Below, in pieces: positions 16,725 to 46,697 of a stretch of DNA of 64,000 nucleotides; positions within the stretch are counted from its first letter, which is position 1, and the number at the start of each line of letters is the position of its first letter. Both the position numbers and the translations under genes were made by a program. The DNA comes from Anaerolineaceae bacterium. GTDB taxonomy: Bacteria; Chloroflexota; Anaerolineae; Anaerolineales; Anaerolineaceae. Where the stretch lies: the NCBI GenBank assembly GCA_011620555.1, contig WOYY01000070.1, positions 12,163 to 76,162 on the forward strand, given 5' to 3'. The notes beneath the pieces are model-generated. The model was not told the origin of the DNA. It worked only from the letters and a program-made list of their open reading frames with translations, and ran no database searches.

Positions 16725-17335
16725 TGGCAACATTTTTATTGGTTCGGCACGGCGAAAATGATATGATCGGCAGGAGACTGGCGGGGCGGATTCCCGATGT
16801 CCACCTGAATGAGAAGGGCCAGGCCCAGGCGCGCCGGGTGGCGGCCGGCTTGGCGGCATTGAAGATCAGGGCGGTCTACGCCAGCCCGCTGGAACGAGCG
16901 CAGGAGACGGCGGAGCCGATTGCGCGGGTGCAGGGCGTGCCGGTTCAGACCCTGCCTGAACTCACCGAGATCGACTTTGGCGAGTGGGAAGGCAAAAGCC
17001 TGGCGCGGCTGAAGAATGGCCGGCAATGGAAGATCGTCCAGGGCAGCCCGGCGACTTTCCGGTTTCCGGGCGGCGAAAGTTTCGCCGAGGCCCAGGCCAG
17101 GGTCGCCGCGGGCCTGCTGAAACTCAGCGAGCAGTATGAGGAAAAAGACCTGGTGGTCTGCGCGGCGCATAGCGACGTTCTCCGCCTGGCTGTGGCGCAT
17201 TTCCTGGAACTCCCCCTGGATCATTTCCAGCGGATCAGGATCAGGCCGGCCTCTGTAACGGTGCTCTACCTGAACGGCGGCAAAGGCTTTTTCGGCCCGA
17301 TCAATTACACCTTCGATTTTTTTTCGGCCTTGTAA
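16724..17335 (+). CDS. Histidine phosphatase family protein
   Basis: LVRHGE, SPLERAQETA, EIDFGEWEG, AHSD. Confidence 0.9.
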   Translation: MATFLLVRHGENDMIGRRLAGRIPDVHLNEKGQAQARRVAAGLAALKIRAVYASPLERAQETAEPIARVQGVPVQTLPELTEIDFGEWEGKSLARLKNGRQWKIVQGSPATFRFPGGESFAEAQARVAAGLLKLSEQYEEKDLVVCAAHSDVLRLAVAHFLELPLDHFQRIRIRPASVTVLYLNGGKGFFGPINYTFDFFSAL

Positions 17336-17393
17336 GGGGTCATTCAAAAAAAAATAGGCTAACCCGTAAAGGTCAGACAAGTAAAGGAGATCC

Positions 17394-18221
17394 ATGAACC
17401 CATACCGTGTGAAACCCGAAACAAAGGTCAGACTGGACGATTTGCCCACCCGCTCCGATGGCGGCATTGAAAAGGCGGATGGCAAAGCTCAGTTGGCGCA
17501 ACTTTCTGTGCAGCTCTCGGACCTTCAGGAGCTGCTCTATGCTGAGCACAAGCAGAAGGTGCTGATCGTTTTGCAGGGCATGGATACCAGCGGCAAGGAC
17601 AGCACCATCCGGCACGTCTTTGGCGAGGTGAACCCCCAGGGGACCAAAGTCTTCAACTTCAAGCAGCCGACGCCCAAAGAGCTGGATCACGATTACCTCT
17701 GGCGGGTGCACCAAAACACCCCCGGCAAAGGCGAGATCGTGATCTTCAACCGCTCGCATTACGAGGACGTCTTGGTGGTGCGGGTGCATGACCTGGTTGC
17801 CAAATCAGTCTGGGAAAAGCGCTATGACCAGATCAATGCCTTTGAGCGTCTGCTGGCCCAGGAAGGGACCACGATCCTGAAATTCTGTCTGCATATCAGC
17901 AAGGAAGAGCAGGCCGAGCGTTTCCTGGCCCGGCTGGACCAGCCAAGCAAACGTTGGAAGTTCAACCCGGGAGATTTGGAAGAGCGCGAATATTGGCAGG
18001 ACTACATGGACGCTTACGAGGATATGGTCAACCGCACCAGCACCGATTGGGCACCCTGGTATGTGATCCCCTCGGATCAAAAATGGTATCGTAATCTGGT
18101 CATCGCAGAGACAATCGTGAAAAAACTGGAAAATCTGGACATGCAGTTTCCCAAGGAAGTGCCCGATATTGAGAAATACCGGGGCATCCTGGAGGAGATG
18201 GTCGCCGAAGAATCCCAATGA
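17394..18221 (+). CDS. ppk2: Polyphosphate kinase 2 family (class III-like)
   Basis: QGMDTSGKD, FNRSHYEDVL, KFCLHISKEEQ, RTST..APWYVIPSDQKWYR. Confidence 0.93.
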   Translation: MNPYRVKPETKVRLDDLPTRSDGGIEKADGKAQLAQLSVQLSDLQELLYAEHKQKVLIVLQGMDTSGKDSTIRHVFGEVNPQGTKVFNFKQPTPKELDHDYLWRVHQNTPGKGEIVIFNRSHYEDVLVVRVHDLVAKSVWEKRYDQINAFERLLAQEGTTILKFCLHISKEEQAERFLARLDQPSKRWKFNPGDLEEREYWQDYMDAYEDMVNRTSTDWAPWYVIPSDQKWYRNLVIAETIVKKLENLDMQFPKEVPDIEKYRGILEEMVAEESQ

Positions 18222-19243
18222 GTTCATCCTCACCGGACCAATATCTTCGGTTTGTCCTCGCCGGCTGTCTGAATGAGGACTATATTCTCCCTATCTCAGA
18301 ATCCCCACAAAACGCAGTTCTGGGGGGAAACCTCCCTTATGCCGCAGTGGGGCTTTCTTTGTGGGGCGGCGCGGCGGGCTTGATTGCCAGGGCCGATAAG
18401 AAATTTCCGGTTTCCGGCCTGGATCGCTTCAAGCAGCTTGGATTTAATTTGCAGGGGATCCGAATCGCGGAAAGGGATCTGGATCTCAGACGTTTCCTCG
18501 CCCATCAGGACGAGAACACGTCCTTTGATGACAACCCCATGCAGCACTATGTGGATCGGGGTCTCCCTTTCCCCCAGCGCTTGCTGGGTTATAAGACCCG
18601 GCCGCTGACCCCGCCGGACCCCACCGCGCAGCAGGGGCAGTCGATCCAGATCTCGGATATCCCCGAGGCCTATCTCGAAGCCAGCGCGGTGCATATCTGC
18701 CCGATTGATTACCTTTCCCATATCATTATGCCCTCAGTCTTCCGCCAGGGCCGGGCCACCACGATCACGCTTTCCCCCGCGCCCAGCTATATGACGCCGA
18801 CCTTTTGGGGAGAGATTCCCGGCCTGCTCTCGGAGATCACCGCGTTCATCGCCTCCGAGCGGGAGGTGAGGTCGCTCTTTCAGGGGCGCAGTTCGGACCT
18901 TTGGGAGATGGCGGCGGCTTTGGGCGGCTTTGGTCCGGAGTTCGTGCTGATCCAGACGGAGCGCTCCGGGTACTTCCTCGCCGACCATGTGAGTAAGAAG
19001 CGTTGGATGATCCCCCAATATCCTTCGCTGGTCGTTGACCCGACGGGCGGCCGCGATGCCTTTGCGGGAGGATTCCTGGCTGGCTACAGCGAAAACTATG
19101 ACCCCCTGGAAGCCGCGCTCAAGGGCGCGATTGCTGCCTCACTGGTGGTGGAAGGCAGCGGCGTCTTTTTTGCTCTGGATGCGATGCCCGGCCTGAAAAG
19201 CGCCAGGCTGAGCGCTTTGCGGCGCCTGGTCCGCCAGATCTGA
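18218..19243 (+). CDS. PfkB family carbohydrate kinase
   Basis: GGNLPYAAVG N-terminal motif and VDPTGGRDAFAGGF C-terminal motif. Confidence 0.8.
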   Translation: MSSSSPDQYLRFVLAGCLNEDYILPISESPQNAVLGGNLPYAAVGLSLWGGAAGLIARADKKFPVSGLDRFKQLGFNLQGIRIAERDLDLRRFLAHQDENTSFDDNPMQHYVDRGLPFPQRLLGYKTRPLTPPDPTAQQGQSIQISDIPEAYLEASAVHICPIDYLSHIIMPSVFRQGRATTITLSPAPSYMTPTFWGEIPGLLSEITAFIASEREVRSLFQGRSSDLWEMAAALGGFGPEFVLIQTERSGYFLADHVSKKRWMIPQYPSLVVDPTGGRDAFAGGFLAGYSENYDPLEAALKGAIAASLVVEGSGVFFALDAMPGLKSARLSALRRLVRQI

Positions 19244-32597: not shown

Positions 32598-33773
32598 ATG
32601 CCCGTCAATCTGGTTGAAATCCAAAAAAGCCTTTCCTCTTTTGCCGATCAGGCCAAGACTCACTTTGAGCAGGAAGCAATATACCTGCGCGAGTTGGAGC
32701 AGGTTTTAACAAGTTACGCTGACCCATTAGATCAAATCCGATCAGTCGTTGGGCGGGAGGTGGACACCAACGCCCGTCTGCGCTGCGCTGTGCCCACTGA
32801 TGAAGCGATAAACACAGCTATCCCTGTTGGGCAGCTGCCGGAGCGGGTGGCCCTGCTGGCGGCGGATGGCTCCCAGATCAATCCCTCCCGCCACGCCAGG
32901 GTACCCTTCTGCGTGATCAATATCGGCGCCGTGGAGATGCTGCGCGGCTCGGGGCAAATGCCCAAGGTTTATCAGGAAAGCCAACTGCTGGATTACGACC
33001 GCACCACGCTGCCGGATACCGGCCTCATCAGCGAGGGCCGCGTCGCGCTGGCCCGAGACCTGGCGGAGCGCCAGAAGCTGGCGGACTGGTCGGCTGAATT
33101 GCCCCAGCCGGCGATTGCGATGATCGATGGGCCGCTGGAACTCTACCGGGACGTCCAGCAGGCGACGGAATTTGAGCGAATCGCCTGGCAGTTTCAGGCC
33201 GTTTTGGAGCAATTTAGAAGAAACAATGTATTTCTCCTGGGCTATGTGGATAAGCCGGGCAGCGACCTGCTGGTGAGCCTGCTGGAGGTGATCGCCAGGC
33301 AGGATAAAGCGTTCCAGTCAAGTTTTCCGAAGGACCGCCCCGTCAGGGTGGTGGACACGGCGCTCTTCAAGGATATCCTCACGGCCCCAGGCGACCGCTC
33401 GGCTGTGTTCAGCGTTTCATCCCCAACCAGCGGTAAGTTTGGAAATGACCAGCAGGTCCACTTTTTCTTTATGAACGTGGGCAGCGAGGATTTCCAGCAT
33501 CTGGCGCGGGTGGAGGTTCCGGCCTGGGTGGCAGGGGATAAAGCCAACATCGCCCTGATCCAGGCGGCTTTATGGGATCAGACGAGGATCATGGGAACGA
33601 AACCTTATCCCTATCTGCTGCACCGCTCTCACGAGGTAGCTGTGGTATCCCTGGATGAGCACCGGCGGGTGGAGGAGATGATCGTCAGTGAATTTTTGCG
33701 GCATCATATTCCGGTTGGCAGCCCATCGCAAAAACAGGCAGTCAAGGATCTTATGCAGGATGGAGGAAAGTAG
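32598..33773 (+). CDS. nurA: NurA family nuclease
   Basis: LAADGSQI, MIDGPL, GYVDKPGS, YPYLLHRSHEVAVV. Confidence 0.9.
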   Translation: MPVNLVEIQKSLSSFADQAKTHFEQEAIYLRELEQVLTSYADPLDQIRSVVGREVDTNARLRCAVPTDEAINTAIPVGQLPERVALLAADGSQINPSRHARVPFCVINIGAVEMLRGSGQMPKVYQESQLLDYDRTTLPDTGLISEGRVALARDLAERQKLADWSAELPQPAIAMIDGPLELYRDVQQATEFERIAWQFQAVLEQFRRNNVFLLGYVDKPGSDLLVSLLEVIARQDKAFQSSFPKDRPVRVVDTALFKDILTAPGDRSAVFSVSSPTSGKFGNDQQVHFFFMNVGSEDFQHLARVEVPAWVAGDKANIALIQAALWDQTRIMGTKPYPYLLHRSHEVAVVSLDEHRRVEEMIVSEFLRHHIPVGSPSQKQAVKDLMQDGGK

Positions 33774-34418
33774 ATGGCGGACCATATCGAAATCGGCAGA
33801 CTATTGCGCTCTGAAACCACCGGGTTTGTCTTTGGCTGCAAACTGGACCAGATCGACAGCCCCAGCTTTGGCGCGCTGGTCCGGGTGCGGATGGACGATC
33901 ACTACCAGATCTTCGGCCTGATCTACGATATCCAGGTCCAGGATGACGGTCTCGTCCGGCAGCTGATCACTTCCGACACGCTGGCGAACGAGGCCTGGCT
34001 GGATACCCGCGGCAACCGCACTGTCCCGGTGGAGATCGGCGTGCTGGCGCTGGGCTACATGCTGGATGGGCAGGTCTCGCACCTGCTGCCGCCCCGCCCG
34101 CCGCTGAGCCTGGATGAGATTTTCCTCTGCACCCCCGCCGAGATCGCGGCCTTCACCGGCGCGGGCCGGATGGGCTACCTGCGGCATGTTCTGCGGGATC
34201 AGGATAAGCCGGTGGAGGAACTGCTGGCGGCGCACCTGAAACAGGCGCGGGACGTGCAGTCGGCCGCAGGCAACCCTGCCTGGTTCGAGGCCGCGCTGGA
34301 AGAAGTGATCGCCCTTCTGAAAGATGATTACCCCACGCTGATGCGGGTGCTGGGCGCGGTGGATGAACTGGAATTGGCCCGAGACCGCCAAAGTGAGTTG
34401 AATGGGAGGCTGGGATGA
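33774..34418 (+). CDS. Stand-alone HAS-barrel domain protein
   Basis: IGRLLRSETTGFVFGC...PSFGALVRV...FGLIYDI; located between nurA and herA. Confidence 0.8.
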   Translation: MADHIEIGRLLRSETTGFVFGCKLDQIDSPSFGALVRVRMDDHYQIFGLIYDIQVQDDGLVRQLITSDTLANEAWLDTRGNRTVPVEIGVLALGYMLDGQVSHLLPPRPPLSLDEIFLCTPAEIAAFTGAGRMGYLRHVLRDQDKPVEELLAAHLKQARDVQSAAGNPAWFEAALEEVIALLKDDYPTLMRVLGAVDELELARDRQSELNGRLG

Positions 34419-36145
34419 CGGATCAACAACGCAGTAATACCCCGAAGACCGACCAAATCGGCATCATCACCGGCGGCTCGCTAAAGAATAACCTCCAGGC
34501 CCGGCTGACCGTGCCCTCCCACGAGGTGCAGGAAGGGGCCTTTGTGGTGGCGGGCGGCGAAAAGGATCGCTGGCTCTTTTATGGCCTGATCACCGACCTC
34601 CGCCTTGAAGCCCATGACCCGCGCTACGCGCAGGAGGACCTCGGCCGGCGGCTTTCCCCCCGCCTGGCGGGGCTGCTGCGAGCGCAGACCCTCTATACCA
34701 GCGCCGAGATCACGAACACCCTGATGATGGAACCCGGGCCGGACCCGCTGGAGGACCCCGAGGGGTATGAGACCTGGTTCCAGAGCGTGCTGACGGAATC
34801 CGTCCCGCCGCAGCCGGCCAAGACCGTCCCGCTGCACCACGCGCCGGTGCGCCTGGCGCGGGCGGAGGATATCGCCCTGATCTTCGGCAAGGAGGGCGAA
34901 AAGGCCTTCTTCCGGCTGGGCGACACACTCGAACAGGGCCACCCCGTCTGCGTGAACCTCGACAGGCTGGTTCAGCGCTCGGCCGGCATCTTTGGAGCGA
35001 CCGGCACCGGCAAGTCCTTCCTGACCCGCGTGATCCTGGCCGGGCTGATCCAGCATGATAAGACCGCTGTGCTGATCTTCGACATGCACAACGAATACGG
35101 CCCGGATGATATCGCTTCCGATACCGGGTTGCACGTGCCCGGCCTCAAGGGTAAGTTCCCCACCAAGGTCCGCATGGTGGGCCTGGGGCGCAACGCCACG
35201 ATCCGCGGAGCGCGGCCGGACTATACGCTCGAAGTGGCCGAAGCGGACATTACACCGGAGGATGTGCTGCTCCTGGCGCAGGAACTGAACCTGCGCGACA
35301 CCACCGCCACGACACTGGACGCGCTCCGAGCATCATTTCACGGCACCTGGTTCAGTGAATTTAAGAAAATGCGGACCAATGCCTTTGTTCCTGGCGATGA
35401 TGGTAAACTGGAGCCTGCGCCGGACAGCGTTCAGGCCTGGGCGGAGTCAGTCGGCGTGCACGGCAGCGCGGCGGAGGCGCTGCATTCCAAGCTGCGACGG
35501 CTGTTCAATGCACCCTATATTGTCGAACAGCCCGCGGCCAACGCGCTCCAGCAGATGATTGACAACCTCGACAACGGCCAGCATGTGGTGCTCTCTTTCG
35601 GCGACTATGAGACCGATCTGGATTATCTCTTCGTCTCCAACCTGCTCACCCGCCGGATCCGCGAGGTCTGGGAAAAGCGGACCAACGACTTCCGGGGCGG
35701 CAAGGGCGCGCCGGAGCCGCGTCCGCTGGTGATCGCGGTGGAAGAAGCGCATAAGCTGCTCAACCGTGAGATGGCCTCACAGACCAGCTTCAGCACGATT
35801 GCGCGGGAGATGCGCAAGTATTACGTCACCCTGCTGATCATCGACCAGCGCCCCTCGCAGATCTATGACGAGGTGATGTCGCAGCTGGGCACCCGGATCA
35901 CCGGCTGGCTGGGCGATTCGGATGACATCGCCGCCGTGCTGACCGGCCTGGCCAGCCGTGACGCACTGCGCGGGATGCTGGCCCGCCTGCAGCCCAAGGA
36001 AGAAGTGCTGATGCTGGGCTGGGGCGTGCCGATGCCGATCGTGATCCGCTCCCGCCGCTATGACAATGTCTTTTGGGAGGAACTGCTCCAACCCAAAACG
36101 AGCAGCCGCAAGACCAACACCGTTTTCGATGGGCTAGATTTCTAA
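34415..36145 (+). CDS. herA: HerA/FtsK-family ATPase (DUF87)
   Basis: N-terminal HAS barrel, GATGTGKS, IFDMHNEYG, VEEAH, IAREMRKY, DQRPS. Confidence 0.9.
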   Translation: MTDQQRSNTPKTDQIGIITGGSLKNNLQARLTVPSHEVQEGAFVVAGGEKDRWLFYGLITDLRLEAHDPRYAQEDLGRRLSPRLAGLLRAQTLYTSAEITNTLMMEPGPDPLEDPEGYETWFQSVLTESVPPQPAKTVPLHHAPVRLARAEDIALIFGKEGEKAFFRLGDTLEQGHPVCVNLDRLVQRSAGIFGATGTGKSFLTRVILAGLIQHDKTAVLIFDMHNEYGPDDIASDTGLHVPGLKGKFPTKVRMVGLGRNATIRGARPDYTLEVAEADITPEDVLLLAQELNLRDTTATTLDALRASFHGTWFSEFKKMRTNAFVPGDDGKLEPAPDSVQAWAESVGVHGSAAEALHSKLRRLFNAPYIVEQPAANALQQMIDNLDNGQHVVLSFGDYETDLDYLFVSNLLTRRIREVWEKRTNDFRGGKGAPEPRPLVIAVEEAHKLLNREMASQTSFSTIAREMRKYYVTLLIIDQRPSQIYDEVMSQLGTRITGWLGDSDDIAAVLTGLASRDALRGMLARLQPKEEVLMLGWGVPMPIVIRSRRYDNVFWEELLQPKTSSRKTNTVFDGLDF

Positions 36146-36146
36146 G

Positions 36147-38720
36147 ATGATCCCTGTCAGACTCAAACTGCAAGGTTTTCTTTCTTACCGCGAGCCGGTC
36201 GAGGTGGATTTCACCGGATTCAACCTGGCCTGCATCTCGGGTGAGAACGGCGCGGGGAAATCGTCCCTGCTGGATGCGATCACCTGGGCGCTCTTTGGCC
36301 GGGCGCGCAAAGCCGATGAATCGGTGATCAATACCCACCCGGATATTAAAAAGGCTGAGGTCACGCTCGATTTTGACTACGAAGGCAACCGCTACCGGGT
36401 GGTGCGCAGCAACCCGCAGGGCAAGACCTCAACGGCGGCCTTCTTTATCCGCGCCCAGGGGGAGGGCGAGGAGCAATGGAACACGCTCAGCGAGCGGACG
36501 CTGCGGGAGACCGATGCGAAGATCGTGGAAACGCTGCGAATGGACTACGACACCTTCACCAATGCGTCCTTCTTTTTGCAGGGCAAGGCGGACCAGTTCG
36601 CCACGGCCCGCCCGGCGGAGCGCAAGCAGATCCTGAGCAACATCCTTGGATTGGAAATCTGGGAGACCCGCCGGGAAGGGATGGCCCAAAAGCGGCGTGA
36701 GACCGATAAACAGGTCGAGGGGCTGGATGGGCGGCTGGGCGAGATCCAGGCCGAGCTGGACGAGGAACCCCAGCGCCTGGCGCACCTGGCCGAGTTGCAG
36801 GAAAAACTGGCGGACCTTGAAGCCCGGCGCGTGGAAAGCGCCCGCACGCTGGAAAACGTCCAGCGTTTGCAGGCCGCGCTGGATGAACAGCGCAAGCTGG
36901 TGGCTACACTCCAGACCCAGCTGGCGAATGCCGAAAAAGCGCTGGACCGCACCCGCACAACCCTGGCGGAACGCCGGGCGGACCAGGCCGGCTATACCGA
37001 AATTCTGGCCCGGGCGGATGAGATTGAACAGGCCTACACCGACTGGCAGGCGGCCCGCCAGAGCCTCGAGGCGATGGAGGAGGTCGCGGAGCAATTCCGC
37101 CAGCATGAGGCCTTGCGGCATGAACCGCTGGCCGCGATCCGGGCAGAGGAAGCCCGGCTGGCCCAGGAGCAGGAGGGCCTGGAGGCCCAGCGGGCTGCGC
37201 TGGCCAGGGCGCAGGCTGAGGGCGAGTCGCTCGAAAAGCAGTTGGCGGAAGCCCGGGGAAAGGCGGCGGCGTTGCAGGCTAAGCTCGCCGAGCGGCAGCA
37301 GCTGGAAGAGGCGCTCCGCAAATTGCAGGCGGACCAGGCCGAGGCCAAGGCCGAGAACCCCCGCCTGCGGGATGAGATGCTCGAACTGAAGGACCGGATT
37401 GACCAGCTTTCGGCGGTGGATGGGGCGGAATGCCCGCTCTGCGGCCAGCCGCTGGCCGCGCATGACCGGCAGGCACTGGTTGAGCACCTGACGCAAAAGG
37501 GGTCGGGCCTGGGCGACCGCTTCCGCGAGAACAAGCAGCTTTTGGAAAACTTTGAATCCCAGCTGCGGCAGATGGGCGCCCAGCTGGCAGACCTGAAAGG
37601 CGTGGACGCCGAACTGCGCGAAGCCACCCGCCGCGCGGACCAGCTGGCCCATCAACTGGAAACTCTCAAGGCCCAGCAGGCCGACTGGGAAGCCACCGGC
37701 GCGGCCCGGCTGACTGAGATCCAGGCGATTTTGAAGGCGAAGTCCTTTGCGCCGGACGCGCGGCAAAAGCTGGCCGAGATCGACCAGGAACTGGAAGCGC
37801 TGGGCTATGACCTGGCGGCGCACCAGCAATTGCGCCAGGCCGAACAGGCCGGACGGGAAGCGGAGGCCGACCTGCGCGCCCTGGAACAGGCGCGGGCCGC
37901 CCTGGGACCGATCGAGCGCGAGATCGCGGGGCTGGAAGAGCAGCTGGCGGAGCAGGAAAAGGCGGCGCAGGACCTGGCCGAGGCGCACACTGCCGCGGCC
38001 GCGAATTTTGCCGCGACGCAAACGGACCTGCCCGACCTCGCGGCGGCCGAAAATGCCCTGCACGACAGCCAGGAGCAGGAGAACCTGCTGCGGCTGAAAG
38101 TGGGCGGTGCGAACCAGAAAGTGGCCGTGCTGGATACCCTGCGCAGGCGCAAAGCGGATCTGGAGCAAGAGCGGGAAGCCCTGAGCCACCAGATCGCTGA
38201 TCTGCGCCAGTTGGAGCGGGCCTTCGGCAAGGACGGCATCCCGGCCCTGCTGATCGAGCAGGCCCTGCCGGAGATCGAAGAGACGACCAACGAATTGCTC
38301 TCCCGGCTCTCGAATGGGCAGATGGCCTTCCGCTTTGAAACCCAGCGGCAATATAAGGACAGCAAGCGCGAGGACCTGAAAGAGACCCTTGAGATGGTCA
38401 TCAGCGATGGGCTGGGTAAGCGGGATTATGAGATGTTCTCCGGCGGCGAGGCCTTCCGAGTGAACTTCTCGATCCGGCTGGCGCTCTCCAAGGTGCTGGC
38501 CCGGCGGGCGGGCGCGCGGCTGCAGACCCTGGTGATTGACGAGGGCTTTGGCAGCCAGGACGCGCAGGGCCGCCAGCGATTGGTGGAGGCGATCAACACC
38601 GTGCGGGATGACTTCGAAAAGATCCTGGTCATCACGCATTTGGAGGAACTCAAGGACGCCTTCCCAACGCGGATCGAGGTGACCAAGACGGAGAAAGGCT
38701 CACAGGTGCGGGTGGTGTAA
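36147..38720 (+). CDS. sbcC: Rad50/SbcC-type SMC ATPase
   Basis: GENGAGKS Walker A, CPLC zinc hook mid coiled-coil, FSGGE signature, LVIDEGFGSQD Walker B. Confidence 0.93.
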   Translation: MIPVRLKLQGFLSYREPVEVDFTGFNLACISGENGAGKSSLLDAITWALFGRARKADESVINTHPDIKKAEVTLDFDYEGNRYRVVRSNPQGKTSTAAFFIRAQGEGEEQWNTLSERTLRETDAKIVETLRMDYDTFTNASFFLQGKADQFATARPAERKQILSNILGLEIWETRREGMAQKRRETDKQVEGLDGRLGEIQAELDEEPQRLAHLAELQEKLADLEARRVESARTLENVQRLQAALDEQRKLVATLQTQLANAEKALDRTRTTLAERRADQAGYTEILARADEIEQAYTDWQAARQSLEAMEEVAEQFRQHEALRHEPLAAIRAEEARLAQEQEGLEAQRAALARAQAEGESLEKQLAEARGKAAALQAKLAERQQLEEALRKLQADQAEAKAENPRLRDEMLELKDRIDQLSAVDGAECPLCGQPLAAHDRQALVEHLTQKGSGLGDRFRENKQLLENFESQLRQMGAQLADLKGVDAELREATRRADQLAHQLETLKAQQADWEATGAARLTEIQAILKAKSFAPDARQKLAEIDQELEALGYDLAAHQQLRQAEQAGREAEADLRALEQARAALGPIEREIAGLEEQLAEQEKAAQDLAEAHTAAAANFAATQTDLPDLAAAENALHDSQEQENLLRLKVGGANQKVAVLDTLRRRKADLEQEREALSHQIADLRQLERAFGKDGIPALLIEQALPEIEETTNELLSRLSNGQMAFRFETQRQYKDSKREDLKETLEMVISDGLGKRDYEMFSGGEAFRVNFSIRLALSKVLARRAGARLQTLVIDEGFGSQDAQGRQRLVEAINTVRDDFEKILVITHLEELKDAFPTRIEVTKTEKGSQVRVV

Positions 38721-38773
38721 GGGGGGGGGGAATTGCTCATCACTCCGCTCTGCTCCGGGCGCATTATCCTTCG

Positions 38774-38795
38774 CCTTCGGTTTCGTCGCAATCAC
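38774..38795. repeat. Dispersed 22-bp repeat, copy 2
   Basis: ccttcggtttcgtcgcaatcac, 18/22 identical to 10121-10142. Confidence 0.5.
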
Positions 38796-38807
38796 AAGAG
38801 TGGGTCG

Positions 38808-38934
38808 CTGACCCACCGTGAAATCAACAGGTCCCCGTCCATCAAGACGGAGGGGCTGTTTTGATGGGGGAGCTTAGGTCCGCCTGCACTTTCCACTCCA
38901 CAACTTTCGCTTGGATATCAATAGCTTCGCTTTC
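38808..38934. repeat. Left imperfect direct repeat (degenerate copy of the lpdA 3' end plus terminator)
   Basis: Shares ttgatgggg.a.cttaggtccgcctg, caactttcgctt and atagcttcgc with 42528-42653. Confidence 0.85.
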
Positions 38935-39037
38935 CATCTTGTGACATTTGTTGCCTCTGGCAGGAAGATTGTCATGCGCAAAAAAAAGGGGTTTGTAACA
39001 GCCTTGTAACGAGGATGCGTAGAATTAGGATGTTAAC

Positions 39038-39055
39038 TAGTGAAATAATTCACAA
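39038..39055. promoter_or_regulatory. Rex-type operator
   Basis: TAGTGAAATAATTCACAA, one mismatch to TTGTGAA-N4-TTCACAA; lies between a TAGAAT -10 (39020) and the acyl-CoA dehydrogenase start. Confidence 0.75.
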
Positions 39056-39086
39056 TATAACCCCTATTTAATGTGGAAGAGGCCCT

Positions 39087-40226
39087 ATGGAATTTTCACT
39101 TAACCCCACTCAAATGATGATCCAGCAGATGGCGCGGAAGTTCGCGTTGAACGAAGTGAAGCCCACTGCGGCTGATACGGATGAAACCGCTGTTTTCCCC
39201 TGGGAAAATGTCAAGAAGATGCAGCGTTACGGCCTGATGGGGATGAATATGCCTGTCGAGGTGGGCGGCGCAGGGACGGACGATATCAGTTATGTGATCG
39301 CGGTGGAAGAGCTTTCAAAAGTCTGCGCCACCACCGGCGTGATCCTGTCCGCGCACAACTCCCTGTTTTGCGACCCCTTATTAAAATTTGGGACCCCCGA
39401 ACAACAGGAGCACTATTTGCGCCCTGCGGCCAGCGGCAAAAAATTGGGCGCGTTCGCTCTGACGGAACCCAACGCCGGGACTGATGCCGCTTCTCAGGTC
39501 ACCCGCGCGGTCAAAGTTGAAAAGGGTTACCGTCTGAACGGCACCAAAATTTTCATCACCAATGCGGGCGAAGCCGATTATTATGTGATTTTTGCGATGA
39601 CCGATGCCAGCAAGGGCACCCGGGGAATCTCAGCCTTTATTCTGGAAAAGGGCTGGGAAGGATTCACCTTTGGGCGGGTGGAGGAAAAGATGGGGATTCA
39701 TGGGTCTTCTACGCGTGAGCTGGTCTTCAGAGATGTGTTTGTGCCCCAGGAAAACCTTTTGGGCCAGGAAGGGGAGGGCTTCAAAATCGCCATGGTCACC
39801 CTGGATGGCGGCCGAATTGGGATCGCCGCTCAGGCCGTTGGGATCGCCCAGGGCGCACTGGATGAAACGATTGCCTACATCAAGCAGCGCGAACAATTCA
39901 AACGTCCCATTTCCCAGTTTCAGGCCGTGCAATTTATGATCGCTGATATGCAGACCCAAACCAGCGCAGCCCGTTTGTTGACCTATCAGGCGGCTGACGC
40001 CAAAACCCGCGGCCTGCCTTACTCGGATCTGGCGGCGATGGCCAAGCTCTTTGCCTCCGAAACCGCTGGTTTTGTGACCAATAAGGCCGTGCAGCTGCAT
40101 GGCGGCTATGGTTACACCCGGGAATATCCAGTGGAACGGATGATGCGGGACGCCAAAATCACTGAAATTTATGAGGGCACCTCTGAAGTGCAGCGCATGG
40201 TGATCTCCTCCCACGCGATTGGTTAG
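39087..40226 (+). CDS. bcd: Acyl-CoA dehydrogenase, butyryl-CoA dehydrogenase-like
   Basis: FALTEPNAGTDA, NGTKIFITN, KMGIHGSST, LDGGRIGIAAQAVG, KITEIYEGTSEVQR. Confidence 0.9.
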   Translation: MEFSLNPTQMMIQQMARKFALNEVKPTAADTDETAVFPWENVKKMQRYGLMGMNMPVEVGGAGTDDISYVIAVEELSKVCATTGVILSAHNSLFCDPLLKFGTPEQQEHYLRPAASGKKLGAFALTEPNAGTDAASQVTRAVKVEKGYRLNGTKIFITNAGEADYYVIFAMTDASKGTRGISAFILEKGWEGFTFGRVEEKMGIHGSSTRELVFRDVFVPQENLLGQEGEGFKIAMVTLDGGRIGIAAQAVGIAQGALDETIAYIKQREQFKRPISQFQAVQFMIADMQTQTSAARLLTYQAADAKTRGLPYSDLAAMAKLFASETAGFVTNKAVQLHGGYGYTREYPVERMMRDAKITEIYEGTSEVQRMVISSHAIG

Positions 40227-40237
40227 AAAGGAAAAAC

Positions 40238-41035
40238 ATGAAAATCATTGTTTGCGTCAAGCAGGTCCCCGATACAAAAGAAATCCGCATCGACCCGGAA
40301 AAGGGCACGATGATTCGCAAAGGCGTTCCCTCCATCATCAATCCCGATGACCGCCACGCGCTTGAATATGCGCTTTCTTTAAAAGACCAGGATTCCAATA
40401 CCGAAGTCGTGGTCCTCAGCATGGGCCCGAAACAGGCAAAAAACGCCCTGATCGAATGCCTGTGCATGGGCGCGGATCAGGCCATCCTGCTTTCTGATAG
40501 CGCTTTCAGCGGGGCGGATACCTGGGCGACCGCCAATACCCTGGCCGCGGCTGTTCGAAAACTGATGCCGTTTGACCTGATCCTCTGCGGGCAGCAGGCC
40601 ATTGATGGCGACACCGCTCAGGTCGGGCCGCAGCTGGCTGAACGCCTGGCGATCCCGCAGGTGACCTATACCCGGGCGATTCAATTGGAGGATCATGCCA
40701 TTGTGGTTGAGCGCCAGATGGAAGACGGCTACGAGGTGGTAAAGGCCGCCTTGCCCGCGCTGATTACCGCCACCCGCAAGTTGAACACTCCCCGTTACAT
40801 GAATATTCGGGACATTGTCAAAATTCACCAGATGGATGACCCGGTCCAGATCTGGGACTTGAATTATCTGAAACTGGATCCCGATCAGACAGGCCTGAAA
40901 GGCTCTCCGACCCGCGTCAAGCGCTCTTTCTCCCCCACGCCCTCCAGCGAGGTGACCTTCCTCACCGGTTCAACCGAGGAGATGGTGTCCTCCCTGCTCG
41001 ATGCGCTGAAAAACCTGAACCTGATTGGAAAGTGA
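40238..41035 (+). CDS. etfB: Electron transfer flavoprotein beta subunit
   Basis: VCVKQVPDT, CGQQAIDGDTAQVGPQ, GLKGSPTRV. Confidence 0.95.
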   Translation: MKIIVCVKQVPDTKEIRIDPEKGTMIRKGVPSIINPDDRHALEYALSLKDQDSNTEVVVLSMGPKQAKNALIECLCMGADQAILLSDSAFSGADTWATANTLAAAVRKLMPFDLILCGQQAIDGDTAQVGPQLAERLAIPQVTYTRAIQLEDHAIVVERQMEDGYEVVKAALPALITATRKLNTPRYMNIRDIVKIHQMDDPVQIWDLNYLKLDPDQTGLKGSPTRVKRSFSPTPSSEVTFLTGSTEEMVSSLLDALKNLNLIGK

Positions 41036-41045
41036 GAAAACGGCC

Positions 41046-42044
41046 ATGAATAACGAAAACAACAATGTTTGGGTCTTTGCTGAACAAACGGGCGGCGAGA
41101 TCTTCCCGGTGGTCTTTGAAATTCTTACGGAAGCGCGGGCAATTGCCGCTAAGCTGGGGACCGGTCTGAGCGCGGTGATGTTGGGCTACCAGGTTGAGGA
41201 CCTGGCTGAACCATTGCGGGCCTATGGCGCCCAAACCATCTATGTCTGCGATGCGCCGGAATTCAAAGATTACACCACAGCCGCCTATACCCAACAGCTC
41301 GCAGCTTTAGTGGGCCAACACGCCCCCGCCGTGCTGTTCATCGGCGCAACGCATAATGGCCGCGATCTGGGCCCGCGCTTGGCCTCGCGCCTGAATACCG
41401 GTCTGACTGCCGACTGCACCGGCCTGGATGTGGACCTGGAAAAGGGCGACCTGTTGATGACCCGTCCGGCCTTTGGCGGGAACCTGATGGCCACCATTGT
41501 CTGCCCCAGCCATCGCCCGCAGATGGCCACGGTCCGCCCGGGAGTGTTCAAGTCGCTGCCGGTGGAGTCCCCTTCAAAAGCTCAGATCGTAAAAGTCCCC
41601 CCTGAAATTCATCCGGGTGATCTGCAGACTGAGATCCTTCGCATTGTAAAGGAAAAATCACAGGAAGAAGAGATCACCCGGGCCAAGATCCTCGTTGCCG
41701 GCGGGCGGGGCCTGGGAAGCGCGGCCGGTTTTGACCTTTTGCAGGAATTGGCGGACTGCCTGGGTGGGACAGTGGCCGCTTCCCGGGCCACGGTGGATGC
41801 AGGCTGGATCAGCAATGCCCGCCAGGTCGGGCAGACCGGTAAAACCGTCCAGCCCGAGTTGTATATCGCCTGTGGCATTTCCGGCGCGATCCAGCATCTG
41901 ATCGGGATGAATAAATCCCGGACCATCGTGGCCATCAATAAGGACAGCAGCGCCCCCATTTTTAAAATTGCACATTATGGGATTGTGGGGGACTTGTATC
42001 AGATTATCCCGGCAATGATCGAACAACTTTCATCAAAACCTTAA
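41046..42044 (+). CDS. etfA: Electron transfer flavoprotein alpha subunit
   Basis: GRDLGPRLA..L.TGLTADCT, TRPAFGGN, QVGQTGK, GISGAIQHLIGM. Confidence 0.95.
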   Translation: MNNENNNVWVFAEQTGGEIFPVVFEILTEARAIAAKLGTGLSAVMLGYQVEDLAEPLRAYGAQTIYVCDAPEFKDYTTAAYTQQLAALVGQHAPAVLFIGATHNGRDLGPRLASRLNTGLTADCTGLDVDLEKGDLLMTRPAFGGNLMATIVCPSHRPQMATVRPGVFKSLPVESPSKAQIVKVPPEIHPGDLQTEILRIVKEKSQEEEITRAKILVAGGRGLGSAAGFDLLQELADCLGGTVAASRATVDAGWISNARQVGQTGKTVQPELYIACGISGAIQHLIGMNKSRTIVAINKDSSAPIFKIAHYGIVGDLYQIIPAMIEQLSSKP

Positions 42045-42054
42045 GGACTATACT

Positions 42055-42492
42055 ATGAACTATGAAGATTTCACCGTAGGACAAGAATACCAACAGACCA
42101 TTCGCATCACACAAGATCAAATCAATGCCTTTGCCCAGGTTTCCGGCGATCATAATCCGCTCCATACGGACCCTGAGTTTGCCCGTAAGTCCATTTTCGG
42201 TAAGACGATTGCTCATGGGATGTATGGCCTCAGCCTGATCTCGGCGGCGTTGGGAACGCATTTCCCGGGGTTTGGCACCATCTATATGGGCCAGGAAGCA
42301 AAATTTCTCAAACCGATCTTCATTGATGAATCGGTGCGAATCGAGTTGCGTGTGAAAGAACTGCAACCCGAAAAGAAACGCATGCTGATTGCGACCACCA
42401 TCATCAAGGAAAACGGCGAAATCGCCATTGATGGTGAAGCACGGGTGCAGTATAACCCGGATCTGTTTGGGGCGGGGTCCAGCCCTGCCTAA
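42055..42492 (+). CDS. MaoC family (R)-specific enoyl-CoA hydratase/dehydratase
   Basis: FAQVSGDHNPLHTD, IAHGMYG, FLKPIFIDE. Confidence 0.9.
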   Translation: MNYEDFTVGQEYQQTIRITQDQINAFAQVSGDHNPLHTDPEFARKSIFGKTIAHGMYGLSLISAALGTHFPGFGTIYMGQEAKFLKPIFIDESVRIELRVKELQPEKKRMLIATTIIKENGEIAIDGEARVQYNPDLFGAGSSPA

Positions 42493-42527
42493 AATTTGGC
42501 GGGTTGTGCGCTGAAACTCAAAAGCTC

Positions 42528-42653
42528 CTGACCATCCTGGAAATAAAAAGGTCTCCCGTCGTGATTGACGGGAGACCTTTTTGATGGGGAACTTAGGTCC
42601 GCCTGTTAGTTCAATTATACAACTTTCGCTTAGATGTGGATAGCTTCGCCTTC
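42528..42653. repeat. Right direct repeat (authentic lpdA 3' end plus terminator)
   Basis: Aligns with 38808-38934. Confidence 0.85.
42546..42582. terminator. Bidirectional intrinsic terminator between maoC and lpdA
   Basis: aaaaaggtctcccgtc-gtgatt-gacgggagaccttttt perfect stem with A/T tracts on both sides. Confidence 0.9.
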
Positions 42654-44033
42654 GGCGCCGGCTGCGGCTTCCATGATGGCCTCGCTCAGCGTCGGGTGCG
42701 CATGCACGTTGCGGGCGATCTCATGCGCGGTCAGCTCGAAGCGCTGGGCCAGGGTCAGCTCGGGCAGCAGCTCGGAGACATCGGGGCCGACCATCTGGGC
42801 GCCGAGGATCTCGCCGTATTTCTTGTCGGTCACGACTTTGACAAAACCCTGATAGTCGTCCAGGCCGAGGGCCTTGCCGTTCGCCTGGAAGGGGAACTCG
42901 CCGACTTCAACGTCATAGCCCAATTCCTTGGCCTTGGCTTCAGTGTAACCGAAGGAGGCGGTCTGCGGGAAGCAGTAGGTGGCTCGGGGCATCATGTCGT
43001 AATTCAGAGTCACGGTTTCCACGCCGGCGATGTTCTCAGCCGCCACCACGCCCATCGCCTGCGCCACATGCGCCAGGAGCAGTTTTCCGGTCACATCGCC
43101 GATGGCCCAAATGCCTGGGACATTGGTCGCCATTTTCTCGTCAATGTCGATATGGCCGCGCTCGGTCAGCTTCACGCCGACATCTTCGAGGCCCAGCCCG
43201 GCGGTATTCGGCCGGAAGCCGATCGCCACGAGAGTGCGTTCCGCTTCGAGGACTTCTTCGCCCTCTTTACCTTCCACGGTCACCTGGGTGCCGCTCTTGG
43301 TGGTGGCAACACCCTTGACCTTGGTGCCGGTCATGATCTTGATGCCGCGCTTCTGATAGGCCTTTTCGATCTCTTTGGCTACGGCCTCATCTTCGGTGGG
43401 CAGCAGCTGGGGCAGCATTTCAACGATGGTCACATCCACGCCGTAGGCATTCCAAACGGAAGCGAATTCCACGCCGATCGCACCGCCGCCGATGATCACC
43501 GCGGAAGCCGGGAGCTTGTCGCTGAGGATCGCGGCTTCGTAGTCCACAACCTTTTCGCCATCCAGCTCGACGCCGGGGACAGTGAAGGGATGGGAGCCGG
43601 TGGCGATCACGATGTTCTTGGCTTTGAGGGTCTCGGCGTCGCCTTCTTCGGGGGTCACTTCGAGGGTGTCCTTGGCCGTCAGCTTGGCCGCGCCCATGAT
43701 CACATCAATGTTATTTTTCTTCATCAGGAAGGTGACCCCGCGCACCAGGCGCTGGGAGACCTTGCGGCTGCGGTCGTAGGCCACAGCGTAATCCAGTTCC
43801 AGGTTATCGAACTTGAAGCCGAATTCCTTGCCCCGTTCCCGCAGGGTGTGGGCGATATCCGCATTCCGCAGCAGGGCTTTGGAGGGAATGCAGCCGATAT
43901 TTAAGCAGACGCCGCCGAGGAAGCGTTTTTCCACGACCGCGGTCTTCAGGCCGAGCTGCGCGCTGCGGATGGCGGCAACGTATCCACCGGGGCCTGCGCC
44001 GATCACGACAACATCATATTCTTTCATTGACAA
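42630..44033 (-). CDS. lpdA: Dihydrolipoyl dehydrogenase (E3)
   Basis: [36 protein letters not shown]; own TATAAT at 44104-44109. Confidence 0.97.
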
Positions 44034-44142
44034 AACTCTCTTTCTAAATTCAAGACGGCCGCTTTCGGGCTGTCATAGGTGTATATACTCCTGTTCGGCA
44101 TTTATTATACCGAATGTGTCCTCTTAGAGGGTTAATGAATGG

Positions 44143-44208
44143 TCAGGCTGTGGGCCAGCTCTGCAGCGCATCCACCACCGCGGCCAGGAATGAGTCGGCC
44201 GAAGCGCC
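44143..44208 (-). pseudogene. C-terminal remnant of dihydrolipoamide acyltransferase (E2)
   Basis: GASADSFLAAVVDALQSWPTA* resembles the E2 C-terminal helix that follows DHR..DG. Confidence 0.65.
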
Positions 44209-44209
44209 C

Positions 44210-44305
44210 GCCGTTATCTTCACCGATCACGAAGGTGTTGGGGTCGCGGGCCAGCTCCTCGTCCACCGCCTGGCGGATGGCTTCAACTCCGGTGATCTCA
44301 GCCAT
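44210..44305 (-). pseudogene. N-terminal remnant of 2-oxoacid dehydrogenase E1 beta
   Basis: MAEITGVEAIRQAVDEELARDPNTFVIGED; its ATG overlaps the E1 alpha stop. Confidence 0.8.
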
Positions 44306-44706
44306 GCTGCACCCCCTGCGCGGTATAGACCGGGAAGTCCGTGTCCTCCCCCCTTGGGGTAGGGCGATTCGGTGGCGACCCGCGCGCGGCGCAGGCCGAA
44401 ATGGCTGGGCATCTGCCGGGCGCCGGAGGTCGGTTTGGCCGCCTTGCCCATCAGGCTCATCGCGTATTCTGTGGGCTTCATGCCCATCACCAGCATCATC
44501 GCCAGGTCGCGGTAATAAAGGACCAGCCAGTCTTTGCCCTGTTTAAGCGCATAAACGGCGCCAAACTGCGCCGTTTCCTGACCGAACCCGGAGATATAAA
44601 ATGCAATTTTGCCCTGGCGAAGCGGCACCCAGGCGCGTTCATCCAGACGCCTGGAAAGCACCATCATCCAGAACATTTCTTTCTTTTGCTCCTTGGAAAG
44701 TGTCAT
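44298..44706 (-). pseudogene. Internally deleted and frameshifted 2-oxoacid dehydrogenase E1 alpha
   Basis: MVLSRRLDER..QGK..FYISG.GQE..YYRD..SGARQMPSHFG joined directly to ESPYP; the TPP-binding GDG motif is missing; the C-terminal tail is in another frame after a G run. Confidence 0.85.
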
Positions 44707-45126
44707 TCGTCAATCCTTCCGGGGAATAATATGACAATTTGACTATTATTTGTTGTATATGATGGTCTTACCATGCGCCGGGTTACAAAACAATTCCTCC
44801 CAGTTCACTCATGTTCATTTAATATCCATGAGTTAGAATACCTATTTAAGGTGGTGGTCACGCATTGTGAAAGCAGTGAGCTTGACAGCCAGTGCCCCTT
44901 TGGGGAATTTGGACCCTTGGCCGGTCCCGTGAAAGCGGATCAATTCCGAAGGCATTTGTTGAGAATCTCATTGCACTTTCTAGCTCACCTGCAGGAGAAC
45001 CAAGCCGCAATGAAAGCTGCATTGCGCTTCTTTCGGATGCTTGATGGAACAGAACTTGCAAACGTAAGAGGTAAGCGCGATACCGGTTGAGATCATAGAA
45101 GCAGTTGTTAAAAAGAGGGCCGACTT

Positions 45127-45822
45127 TTGGCAGAGAACCAACACGAACAATCCCCCAAGGAAAAGAACGCCCAAGCCTCGCAAAATAAATGGGAGCATAT
45201 TTCCAAGGATCCCAAAGAGGGCGGCGTGATCCTGGGCAATTCCTGGCAGCCGCTGGCTGAAATCTCTCACCCTGAAGAGGATCTGGTCAGCATCTTTCAG
45301 GAGGGTTTCGATTCGGCTGAAAAGAACGCTTCCACCCGTGAATTGGGGATGCCGCCGACATCCACCTTTCAGTCCCAGGTGGATACCCAGCCAGTGCGGC
45401 TGACCTCCGCGCTGGAGAACTGGACCGTCGGCCCGGAAATCCCGGTGGCCGCGAATATCACTTTTTACCTTGCCCCTTGCCAGACCAAACATTTCCTGAT
45501 CGGCGGGCTGTCCCGCAATTTGCGGGAGTGGCTGCCCGAAATTTGCAAGACCTATGGCTGGGAACTGGACCTGCTCTCAGTCCGGCCGGATTACCTCAAA
45601 TGGACCCTGCGGGACTTCCCTGAGTTGCTGATCCGGGATATGCTCCTGACCGTGCGGGAGAAGACGTCCCAGCGGATCTTCCGGACTTTCCCGAACCTCA
45701 AAGAAGGCGCCACTTCACCCGACTTTTGGGCGCCCGGATATCTGGTGGATAACCAAAATCGGGATTTCTCCACCCAGGCTCTGATGGCCCATGTTGCTCA
45801 GAATCGTCTGGGAAATGGGTAA
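45127..45822 (+). CDS. IS200/IS605 TnpA (Y1)-like domain protein with N-terminal extension; HUH motif lost
   Basis: LREWLPEICKTYGWELDLLSVRPDYLKW...TSQRIFRTFP...FWAPGYLV follows the Y1 transposase pattern, but PDHVH is replaced by PDYLK. Confidence 0.7.
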   Translation: MAENQHEQSPKEKNAQASQNKWEHISKDPKEGGVILGNSWQPLAEISHPEEDLVSIFQEGFDSAEKNASTRELGMPPTSTFQSQVDTQPVRLTSALENWTVGPEIPVAANITFYLAPCQTKHFLIGGLSRNLREWLPEICKTYGWELDLLSVRPDYLKWTLRDFPELLIRDMLLTVREKTSQRIFRTFPNLKEGATSPDFWAPGYLVDNQNRDFSTQALMAHVAQNRLGNG

Positions 45823-45864
45823 GCATTTGGATTAACTCTTATGAAACACTTATATTAAAACCCC

Positions 45865-45893
45865 TTGTCAATGATTGGGTTTTATGCTATTAT
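45865..45893 (+). promoter_or_regulatory. Sigma70 promoter
   Basis: TTGTCA-17 bp-TATTAT. Confidence 0.7.
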
Positions 45894-46064
45894 TACATGG
45901 TCGAACGTCTGGGTGCCCCCCTCACCCAGGCGTTTGGCACTTTAAAGGCCAAAATTTTCAAACTTGTTGCTTGGGGAAAAGCAGGGGATTGACCCAACTG
46001 AAACATCAGAATTCCGATAAAATGGATAGGTTGGATTAATTTTGAAACTCTAGCGGAGTGAGCC

Positions 46065-46697
46065 TTGACCACGTTCGAAATTCGCCAATGCACAGACCCG
46101 GCCTGCCGGCTGCGGATCCCCCTGGACCCGGAAGTGTTCAGCGGGGCCTATTGCCCACGCTGCGGCGCGCCGCTGGCCCTTGTGGAGGCGGCCTACCAAA
46201 ACCCGGATTGCTCCGCGCAAGCCGCCCCGCGGATCCCGCTTTCGGCGCTGCTGGATAATATCCGCTCCGCCTATAACGTCGGCGCGATCTTCCGCACCGG
46301 TGATGGCGTTGGACTGCGGCATCTTTATCTCTGCGGCTTCACGCCCAGCCCGGATGAGAACCCGGCCATTGCCAAGACGGCCCTCGGCGCGGAGAAGCAC
46401 CTGACCTGGTCGCAGCACCGCAACAGCCTGGACCTGGCGGACCAGCTTAAGGATGACGGCCATCCGTTGATCGCTTTGGAATGCACAGCCAAAGCCACTC
46501 CAATTTACCGCTTCAGGGCGGAAGCGCCAGACCCTGGTTCCTGGGTGCTGGTGGTGGGCAATGAGCAGGCCGGGGTGGACCCAGGCCTGCTGGCGCGCTG
46601 CGACCAGGTGCTCAGTTTGCCCATGACCGGCCAGAAGAATTCGCTGAATGTGGCGGCCGCCTTTGCCGCGGCGGCCTACTGGCTGTCTTTTGCCTGA
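46065..46697 (+). CDS. TrmH/SpoU family RNA methyltransferase with N-terminal zinc ribbon
   Basis: LDNIRSAYNVGAIFRT, VGNEQAGV, SLNVAAA; C-x4-C...CPRC N-terminus. Confidence 0.9.
   Translation: MTTFEIRQCTDPACRLRIPLDPEVFSGAYCPRCGAPLALVEAAYQNPDCSAQAAPRIPLSALLDNIRSAYNVGAIFRTGDGVGLRHLYLCGFTPSPDENPAIAKTALGAEKHLTWSQHRNSLDLADQLKDDGHPLIALECTAKATPIYRFRAEAPDPGSWVLVVGNEQAGVDPGLLARCDQVLSLPMTGQKNSLNVAAAFAAAAYWLSFA

Follow-up and report, generated by a model that had tools for sequence, protein, structure and literature searches.

The 64,000-nucleotide stretch analyzed here (the window; part of contig WOYY01000070.1 of an Anaerolineaceae bacterium, with sequence also present in oil-field metagenomes) carries a bcd-etfB-etfA-maoC operon for acyl-CoA oxidation between two convergent core genes, sbcC and lpdA, and this operon is bracketed by direct repeats of the lpdA 3′ end. 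Comparison with related loci, which come from metagenome assemblies throughout and are cited below by their handles (L002 and so on), firmly identifies the operon as an old insertion accompanied by a duplication of its target, one copy of which has since decayed into a relic. The locus comprises the following features, in window coordinates.

36147..38720, plus strand: sbcC/rad50-like ATPase, 857 amino acids (aa), the left core gene (Pfam SMC_N, AAA_23, Rad50_zn_hook, SbcC_Walker_B)
38800..38816, no strand: palindrome GTGGGTCGCTGACCCAC, resembling a repetitive extragenic palindrome (REP), whose centre marks where the duplication ends on the sbcC side
38808..38934, minus strand: left copy, a decaying relic, contiguous with the flank orthologous to the empty-site locus L086
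38828-38858: terminator hairpin of the left copy
38860-38910: mutated 3′ untranslated region (3′UTR) element of the left copy
38911-38934: eight lpdA pseudo-codons of the left copy, ESEAIDIQ, with the stop replaced by CAA
38935-42527: insert, 3,593 bp
42528..42653, minus strand: right copy, functional, with terminator, 3′UTR element and the real lpdA end
42545-42582: bidirectional terminator of the right copy, a hairpin with a perfect 16-bp stem
42585-42641, minus strand: conserved 3′UTR element, a candidate small RNA with promoter (profile R1)
42630-42653, minus strand: true last lpdA codons, EGEAIHI*
42630..44027, minus strand: lpdA, dihydrolipoyl dehydrogenase (E3), 465 aa from ATG (Pfam Pyr_redox_2, Pyr_redox_dim)

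The two copies, 38808-38934 and 42528-42653, align with 74.2% identity over 128 columns (blastn, E-value 2.9e-15), in agreement with the initial annotation, in which two stretches of about 126 bp had been judged about three-quarters identical by eye. The alignment scores 72.5 bits as against 11.6 ± 6.9 (maximum 22.9) for 200 shuffles; its ungapped core (38867-38934 and 42586-42653) is 79% identical, and the longest exact match between the copies, of 14 nt, is internal to the repeat. Both copies consist of a G+C-rich hairpin with a T run after it, CTTAGGTCCGCCTG together with ACAACTTTCGCTT, and the lpdA end, so that the hairpin, sequence words and last lpdA codons are shared as annotated, and the right copy indeed ends in GEAIHI* and the left in SEAIDIQ without a stop. 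The right copy also contains cttaggtccgcctg and caactttcgctt. The duplicated 126 bp extend from the right half of the REP-like palindrome through the terminator and the lpdA 3′UTR element as far as the final 7-8 lpdA codons, and cover the whole promoter-to-terminator unit behind lpdA together with 20 nt past the terminator. A third copy was not detected by blastn in the 64 kb window.

The right copy holds an element that is strictly conserved behind lpdA throughout the Brevefilum-like clade, at an equal position in L002-L016, L025, L050, L082 and L086-L103 (42545-42641 of the window, minus strand). In lpdA sense the element consists of TTCACA, 15-17 nt, TAnAAT, 7 nt, AACAGGCGGACC, 4-5 nt, TCCCC and a terminator hairpin, the TTCACA falling inside the final lpdA codons I-H-I and the hairpin sequence varying among relatives. 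The 7-nt spacing between TAnAAT and AACAGGCGGACC is kept in 19 of the 21 sequences scanned, and the columns TAnAAT and AACAGGC are invariant in a 22-sequence alignment of distinct relatives. The sequence-only profile R1 gives one match per locus, always at the lpdA end, and none elsewhere in 1.68 Mb of related sequence; the repeat is thus not the multi-copy element unrelated to lpdA that the initial annotation had named as a possible alternative. On the right copy the profile scores 54.6 bits (E-value 1.4e-14, 42585-42641, minus strand), and this copy appears to have stayed near the consensus because it holds the conserved element. A search of 38000-46500 against Rfam gave no match for the element and only sub-threshold miRNA noise on the hairpin. 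Likewise, a generic promoter and terminator scan did not flag the promoter at the lpdA end, because the 15-nt spacer of the window lineage lies outside the range of the scan. No RNA sequencing run was found to contain the sequence of the window or of L003. In L099, the element lies about 110 nt from the lpdA stop, displaced by an extra hairpin.

A multi-copy REP or miniature inverted-repeat transposable element was also considered as the source of the repeats and was rejected, the 17-nt palindrome being single in the window and profile R1 matching lpdA ends only. The 10-mer GGTCCGCCTG was similarly discarded as a multi-copy element, its other occurrences being at chance frequency only.

The left copy has lost its -10 box and consensus (TATAAT to GTGGAG) and for this reason no longer scores with profile R1. 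With its hairpin, mutated motif and eight pseudo-codons, the window relic is the fullest among the lineages compared; the relic of L169 is shorter, its pseudo-codons having gone through a deletion between two CTTTC words, that of L082 is reduced to the hairpin alone, and the sbcC-side copy of L167 has a different hairpin. The palindrome at the left boundary, GTGGGTCGCTGACCCAC, is single in the window (0.01 chance matches expected) and is also found in L082, L169, L167 and L086, and the right copy starts with its right half alone (CTGACCATCC; CTGACCCTCC in L169). The sbcC-side copy is the displaced end of lpdA, a neutral relic that erodes differently in each lineage, much as the initial annotation had envisaged in describing a displaced gene end left behind as a distal repeat.

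In relatives, the gap between sbcC and lpdA is dense with REP-like palindromes of the GGGTGGGTCGCYGACCCACC and GTCACGCA...TGCGTGAC types (window 38800-38816; L082 about 9300-9810; L086 11540-11560 and 11930-11950). On the plus strand, the loop of the right-copy hairpin (42556-42561) reads GTGATT and so matches, in reverse complement, the loop type of the left copy (38840-38845) and of the empty-site L086, which in lpdA sense read TTGATG and TTGATT, respectively. This suggests a putative hairpin-loop inversion.

The site without the cassette, which the initial annotation had proposed looking for as sbcC-terminator-lpdA, is found in many relatives, the sister clade included. sbcC is syntenic in 80 Anaerolineae loci recovered by a SbcC protein search, the closest of which belong to Brevefilum-like metagenome-assembled genomes. 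The empty site occurs in at least 12 species, in which sbcC and lpdA converge with 180-600 bp between them and neither bcd nor etf nor maoC lies within 10 kb; in L002, L005, L013-L017 and L050, the empty gap measures 180-550 bp. The sister loci L086 and L087, found by an LpdA scan of metagenomes, are also empty (79-81% nucleotide identity in sbcC and 93-95% amino acid identity in LpdA). The sbcC tree has the topology ((window, L082), (L086, L087)), L002, and the filled genomes form one clade by sbcC, herA and spoU. From the empty sites in the sister and deeper branches and the sbcC topology, we infer that the cassette was inserted on the branch leading to the window clade, which bears out that part of the earlier reading in which the lpdA 3′ end was the site of an old insertion by recombination.

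The filled lineages are four at the species level, viz., the window, L169-171, L166-168 and L082/83. The window, L082 and L169 have in common the left junction CATCTT(G/A)TGACATT and the start of the right copy at the REP half. Nucleotide identity to the window falls in the same order, L169 > L167 > L082, for the cassette genes as for sbcC, herA and lpdA; cassette divergence thus follows host divergence and points to vertical inheritance since a single event. The opposite polarity, in which the cassette is ancestral at the site and the empty-site genomes have lost it by recombination between the repeats, is most improbable. Direct repeats could in principle mediate a precise deletion, and for lpdA the window, L082, L086 and L087 are almost equally similar to one another (89-91%), but the empty sites of the sister clade and of all deeper branches, in at least 12 species, contain no relic, the filled genomes are one clade by the three genes named above, and the many independent precise losses that would be needed are disfavoured by parsimony.

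The insert itself is an operon of four genes behind its own putative control region.

38935..39086, plus strand: cassette promoter/operator region with two TTGTAAC repeats, a TAGAAT -10 box and a Rex-like box
39002-39019: two TTGTAAC direct repeats upstream of bcd
39038-39055: Rex-operator-like inverted repeat TAGTGAAATAATTCACAA upstream of bcd
39087..40226, plus strand: bcd, short-chain (butyryl-type) acyl-CoA dehydrogenase, 379 aa (Pfam Acyl-CoA_dh_N/M/1)
40238..41035, plus strand: etfB, electron transfer flavoprotein (ETF) beta subunit (Pfam ETF)
41046..42044, plus strand: etfA, electron transfer flavoprotein alpha subunit (Pfam ETF, ETF_alpha)
42055..42492, plus strand: maoC-type (R)-specific enoyl-CoA hydratase, 145 aa (Pfam MaoC_dehydratas)
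42493..42527, plus strand: insert tail of 35 nt from the maoC stop to the right copy, conserved in L169 and L082

Pfam thus places a three-domain acyl-CoA dehydrogenase and both ETF subunits in one operon. The etfA start is the ATG at 41046, with a TTG further upstream at 41025, and in L001 and L082 the annotated protein has 332 aa. The box TAGTGAAATAATTCACAA (GTGAA-N4-TTCAC) is a predicted operator that fits the Rex consensus. Bcd is 94-96% identical within the filled clade, 75-89% identical to its counterparts in other Anaerolineae and 66-71% identical to those of Thermotogota and Firmicutes; in an exact protein look-up LpdA had no match and Bcd matched the same Logan contig only. The cassette has a G+C content of 0.50-0.57 (0.58-0.71 at third codon positions, GC3) as against 0.61-0.65 (GC3 0.78-0.82) for sbcC and lpdA, and both values lie inside the spread of the other window genes. 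The enclosed 3.6 kb, described initially as less GC-rich, is hence so relative to its flanks but not relative to the range of genes in the window.

The same four genes and promoter are present in L084, L085 and L172/173 in three unrelated neighbourhoods with no lpdA nearby. The promoter region is conserved upstream of bcd in these loci and in L082, the Rex-like box and TTGTAAC repeats being kept in four unrelated genomic contexts of the operon, and homology to L084 starts near ATGACATT, at the left insert boundary. The 35-nt tail is not homologous to what follows maoC in L084 and L085. The recurrence of genes and promoter elsewhere, together with the onset of homology to L084 at the insert boundary, indicates that the cassette is a self-contained promoter-to-stop operon, and it apparently relocates as a unit within the Anaerolineae.

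The gap between sbcC and lpdA holds at least ten different contents among the relatives, alongside at least 12 empty sites. The fillings other than the present cassette are as follows.

L003, L092/93, L082: membrane open reading frame (ORF)
L004: LacI and a sugar ABC transporter
L007: MerR-like genes
L025: degV and four membrane-protein genes (degV-DUF1295-DUF1475-DUF4345-DUF3159)
L087: AT-rich S1-like ORF
L098: a bona fide REP-associated tyrosine transposase (RAYT) with flanking REPs and a 108-nt tandem repeat
L099, 11908-14177: arsR-ACR3-arsM, i.e. arsR, an ACR3-type SBF transporter and a SAM methyltransferase
L101: SLH hydrolase and transglutaminase
L102: FRG protein

This diversity shows that the sbcC/lpdA gap is a general hot spot of gene flux, long-lived across species. 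When 96 lpdA loci were systematically searched against themselves, duplication of the lpdA coding end was detected in the window and L025 and in no other locus. The L025 repeat (13046-13190 and 16632-16775) is 145 bp long and 88-90% identical, and contains the element and about 105 nt of lpdA; both copies of the element are intact, with profile R1 scores of 55.8 and 53.1 bits. The sbcC-side copy of L025 has the terminator of the empty-site L002, to which its non-coding part is 90% identical, and the lpdA-side copy has an unrelated terminator and a non-coding part that is 70-74% identical to the native type and closest to L003 (81%). The comparison of the two copies leads us to infer that L025 received its lpdA-side copy with the incoming DNA, by which the native end was pushed outward. 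The length of lpdA retained at the joint is 22-24 nt in the window and about 105 nt in L025, a difference that may be accounted for by illegitimate joints, which are expected to vary.

The ancestral order was sbcC, terminator and lpdA, with the two genes converging on the terminator. The operon inserted there in the common ancestor of the clade measures 3,593 bp and comprises a Rex-box promoter, the genes bcd, etfB, etfA and maoC and the 35-nt tail; it was thereafter inherited vertically and is immobile. On balance, and with moderate confidence, we think it probable that the cassette entered through one homologous crossover anchored in lpdA combined with one illegitimate join. The incoming DNA would have carried the operon beside an lpdA 3′ end. 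On one side, the joint may have formed by homologous recombination in the conserved lpdA/terminator region and, on the other, by an illegitimate join inside the 3′ end of the recipient lpdA. The process would amount to homology-facilitated illegitimate recombination or, equivalently, to a Campbell-type single crossover of a circularised fragment. Its outcome would be the regeneration of an intact lpdA, with the lpdA-side copy remaining functional and the native end being pushed outward, and such events probably recur at the sbcC/lpdA gap. Homology-facilitated illegitimate recombination was reportedly described by de Vries and Wackernagel in 2002. Some features of such recombination are present at the locus, where a conserved anchor, lpdA, abuts new DNA, mobility genes are absent and the joints vary between the two independent events.

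Several observations weigh against this reading. No donor with the cassette beside lpdA and without a relic was found, and a tblastn search of 170 loci gave no lpdA-adjacent donor of either the cassette or the L025 cargo; the cassettes of L084, L085 and L172/173 are not near lpdA. A donor-derived copy on the anchor side is seen in L025 only, where it amounts to about 50 nt and the terminator, both copies of the window being of the clade's own sequence type. A chimeric lpdA was looked for by sliding-window identities in the window and in L025 and was rejected for want of a convincing breakpoint. To our knowledge, these uncultured organisms are not known to undergo natural transformation, and the cassette may have either relocated within one genome or arrived by transfer.

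The sequence type of the window copies agrees equally with a long target duplication made in situ, either by staggered breaks 126 bp apart, at the palindrome tip and the lpdA end, or by hairpin template switching, so that both copies would have been identical native sequence at time zero. The copies carry the clade type and have in common states that are missing from the outgroups (GCGAAAG, CCTAAG and CCCCATCAAAA), one boundary falls exactly at the palindrome centre, and the ends of the insert are clean and operon-sized. That boundary hints at a possible hairpin-directed break. A duplication in situ nevertheless leaves L025 unexplained, since its lpdA-side terminator is different, its non-coding part is divergent there, and its relic is 90% native-like. 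Moreover, we know of no established bacterial mechanism that yields target duplications of 126-145 bp, and overall we regard such an origin as unlikely. For the window, where both copies are of the clade type, a very close donor and a duplication in situ are indistinguishable, and the two readings cannot be separated if the donor was a close relative.

A somewhat more doubtful alternative is site-specific integration of an element whose attachment site (attP) bore a replacement lpdA 3′ end. The element would later have lost its integrase module, or the module would have worked in trans, so that the cargo and a degenerate att pair are all that remains. The architecture is that of e14 at icd (PMC13626634); the same gene end has been used twice independently, in the window clade and in L025, and the lpdA-side copy of L025 appears foreign, as an attP-borne end would be. 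However, Pfam searches found no recombinase or transposase domain among the ORFs between sbcC and lpdA in the window, and no integrase in the L025 cargo or in about ten other occupied versions of the site. The boundaries, which are the palindrome centre and lpdA codon -8, contain no identical core at both junctions, the cuts in lpdA at 22-24 and about 105 nt leave no common crossover site, and the insert is exactly one promoter-to-stop operon, which elsewhere is ordinary chromosomal DNA.

The initial annotation had rightly noted that the enclosed DNA has no integrase, yet had called the repeats att-like and the islet potentially excisable. The first description is not supported, given the lack of an integrase and of an identical core and the differing truncation points of the two independent events. 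The second is at odds with vertical inheritance through at least four lineages and with the erosion of the left copy. In addition, contigs of three runs that carry the organism have continuous cassette-bearing sequence, and no joint skipping from 38.8 to 42.5 kb was seen in the Logan contigs of these three oil-field runs (about 8x), contigs being a form of assembly that misses rare forms. Copies that are 74% identical and have no exact match longer than 14 bases are unlikely to undergo RecA-type recombination, given its minimal homology requirement. We consider the cassette to be fixed and not mobile, and to have survived speciation.

A further reading concerns the nature of the repeated unit. 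Tentatively, the 126-bp unit may be the complete gene of an undescribed small RNA of ~60 nt that is regenerated by those insertions that survive. The candidate promoter would overlap the last lpdA codons, the RNA would have the 5′ end AACAGGCGGACC...UCCCC, and the lpdA terminator would be shared. If so, insertions into the hot spot would survive only when the unit is regenerated, and the repeats would be a selected footprint; insertions could also create paralogous copies of the small RNA, L025 having two that are intact. Regulatory RNAs of the Anaerolineae are, as far as we know, almost unexplored, and Brevefilum fermentans is a cultured relative. In our view, the promoter-plus-seed-plus-terminator element at the lpdA end is the part of the locus most worth pursuing.

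The neighbourhood of the insertion has a history of its own. lpdA is 89-95% identical at the nucleotide level within the clade and 80-82% identical to L002 and L025, and is accompanied by what is left of a 2-oxoacid dehydrogenase operon.

44034..44706, minus strand: remnants of E2, E1beta and E1alpha, a collapsed 2-oxoacid dehydrogenase operon, of which only the E1_dh N-terminal part is left (Pfam)

These remnants lie outside the insertion and serve as context only. In L082 coordinates, the window sequence runs up to 15122 and continues with 17257-17429 and then with 18010-18433, which implies two deletions in the E1-E2 region, with about 670 bp remaining. E1alpha-E1beta-E2 is intact in L082, L170, L005, L008, L015 and L025 and wholly absent from L002, L013, L014, L016 and L050; E1/E2 has thus been lost repeatedly and lpdA kept.

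Further along, at 45127-45822, lies a Y1_Tnp-like gene with a long N-terminal extension that is syntenic with spoU in all relatives at 37-70% identity, evidently a domesticated gene that is unrelated to the insertion. A RAYT-driven insertion was rejected on similar grounds, this Y1-like gene, 2.5 kb away, being syntenic in empty and filled genomes alike. On the other side, sbcC closes a tightly packed nurA-HAS-herA-rad50 operon (32598-38720 of the window) that is conserved in the clade and in which no mre11/sbcD was seen. sbcC is split into two ORFs in L025 (10001-12576) and L169 (3128-5704), which may reflect a frameshift or an assembly error.

Overall, the cassette is old and fixed, a result of gene flux into a hot spot of recombination. 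It provides a natural example, from the Anaerolineae of the poorly studied phylum Chloroflexota, of a metabolic operon captured between core genes without mobile-element machinery, and its insertion scar can be dated by stages of decay over four lineages. It also serves as a warning that a direct repeat of a gene end need not mean an att site or excisability.

The inserted operon resembles the clostridial bcd-etfBA operons under Rex control in the order bcd-etfB-etfA and in the predicted Rex inverted repeat upstream, the identity of its Bcd to the Firmicutes enzymes being 66-69%, and differs from them in that a MaoC (R)-hydratase has joined it instead of crt and hbd. The element behind lpdA is comparable with 3′UTR small RNAs that have an internal promoter, of the DapZ/MicL type, in that the coding sequence ends within a -35/-10 pair, which stands at a constant distance from a conserved 5′ segment, and in that the mRNA uses the same terminator. 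Unlike those RNAs, the lpdA element has an Anaerolineae host and no Rfam match, and is known as a sequence alone.

For the insertion, a close parallel in architecture is e14, or phage 21, in icd of E. coli, where icd remains intact and a pseudo-end, icdC, is displaced (Hill et al. 1989, as cited in PMC13626634). In both cases a housekeeping dehydrogenase gene has taken up DNA in its 3′ end and stays intact, with a short pseudo-copy of the displaced end at the far side and a diverged direct repeat as the result. For its part, e14 is equipped with an integrase and a defined att core, and its excision is SOS-inducible. At the present locus, in contrast, the insert is a plain metabolic operon, no recombinase, common core or excision was detected, and the two independent events truncate lpdA at different points.

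Homology-facilitated illegitimate recombination with displaced 3′ ends, or C-terminal displacement, has been proposed for type VI secretion system (T6SS) and rhs loci (PMC5361080). In these effector-immunity arrays, as here, a conserved anchor stands on one side with new DNA downstream, the old 3′ end is orphaned outward, mobility genes are unneeded and events recur at one locus. Those arrays are polymorphic toxin loci of Proteobacteria, for which some steps are experimentally supported in transformable species, whereas the present case involves lpdA as the anchor, a metabolic cargo and hosts among the uncultured Anaerolineae, with a mechanism that is read from the sequences themselves.

At the level of the site, most hot spots of horizontal transfer lie between core genes and are without mobile elements (Oliveira et al. 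2017, PMC5635113). The sbcC/lpdA gap is similar to these in that one core-gene interval has many gene sets, mostly without mobile-element genes. Those hot spots were defined within species pangenomes, and the present one is seen across metagenome-assembled genomes at the species and genus level. It also departs from that concept in that two of its fillings, the bcd-etfB-etfA-maoC operon of the window clade and the degV cluster of L025, bear a visible duplication scar.

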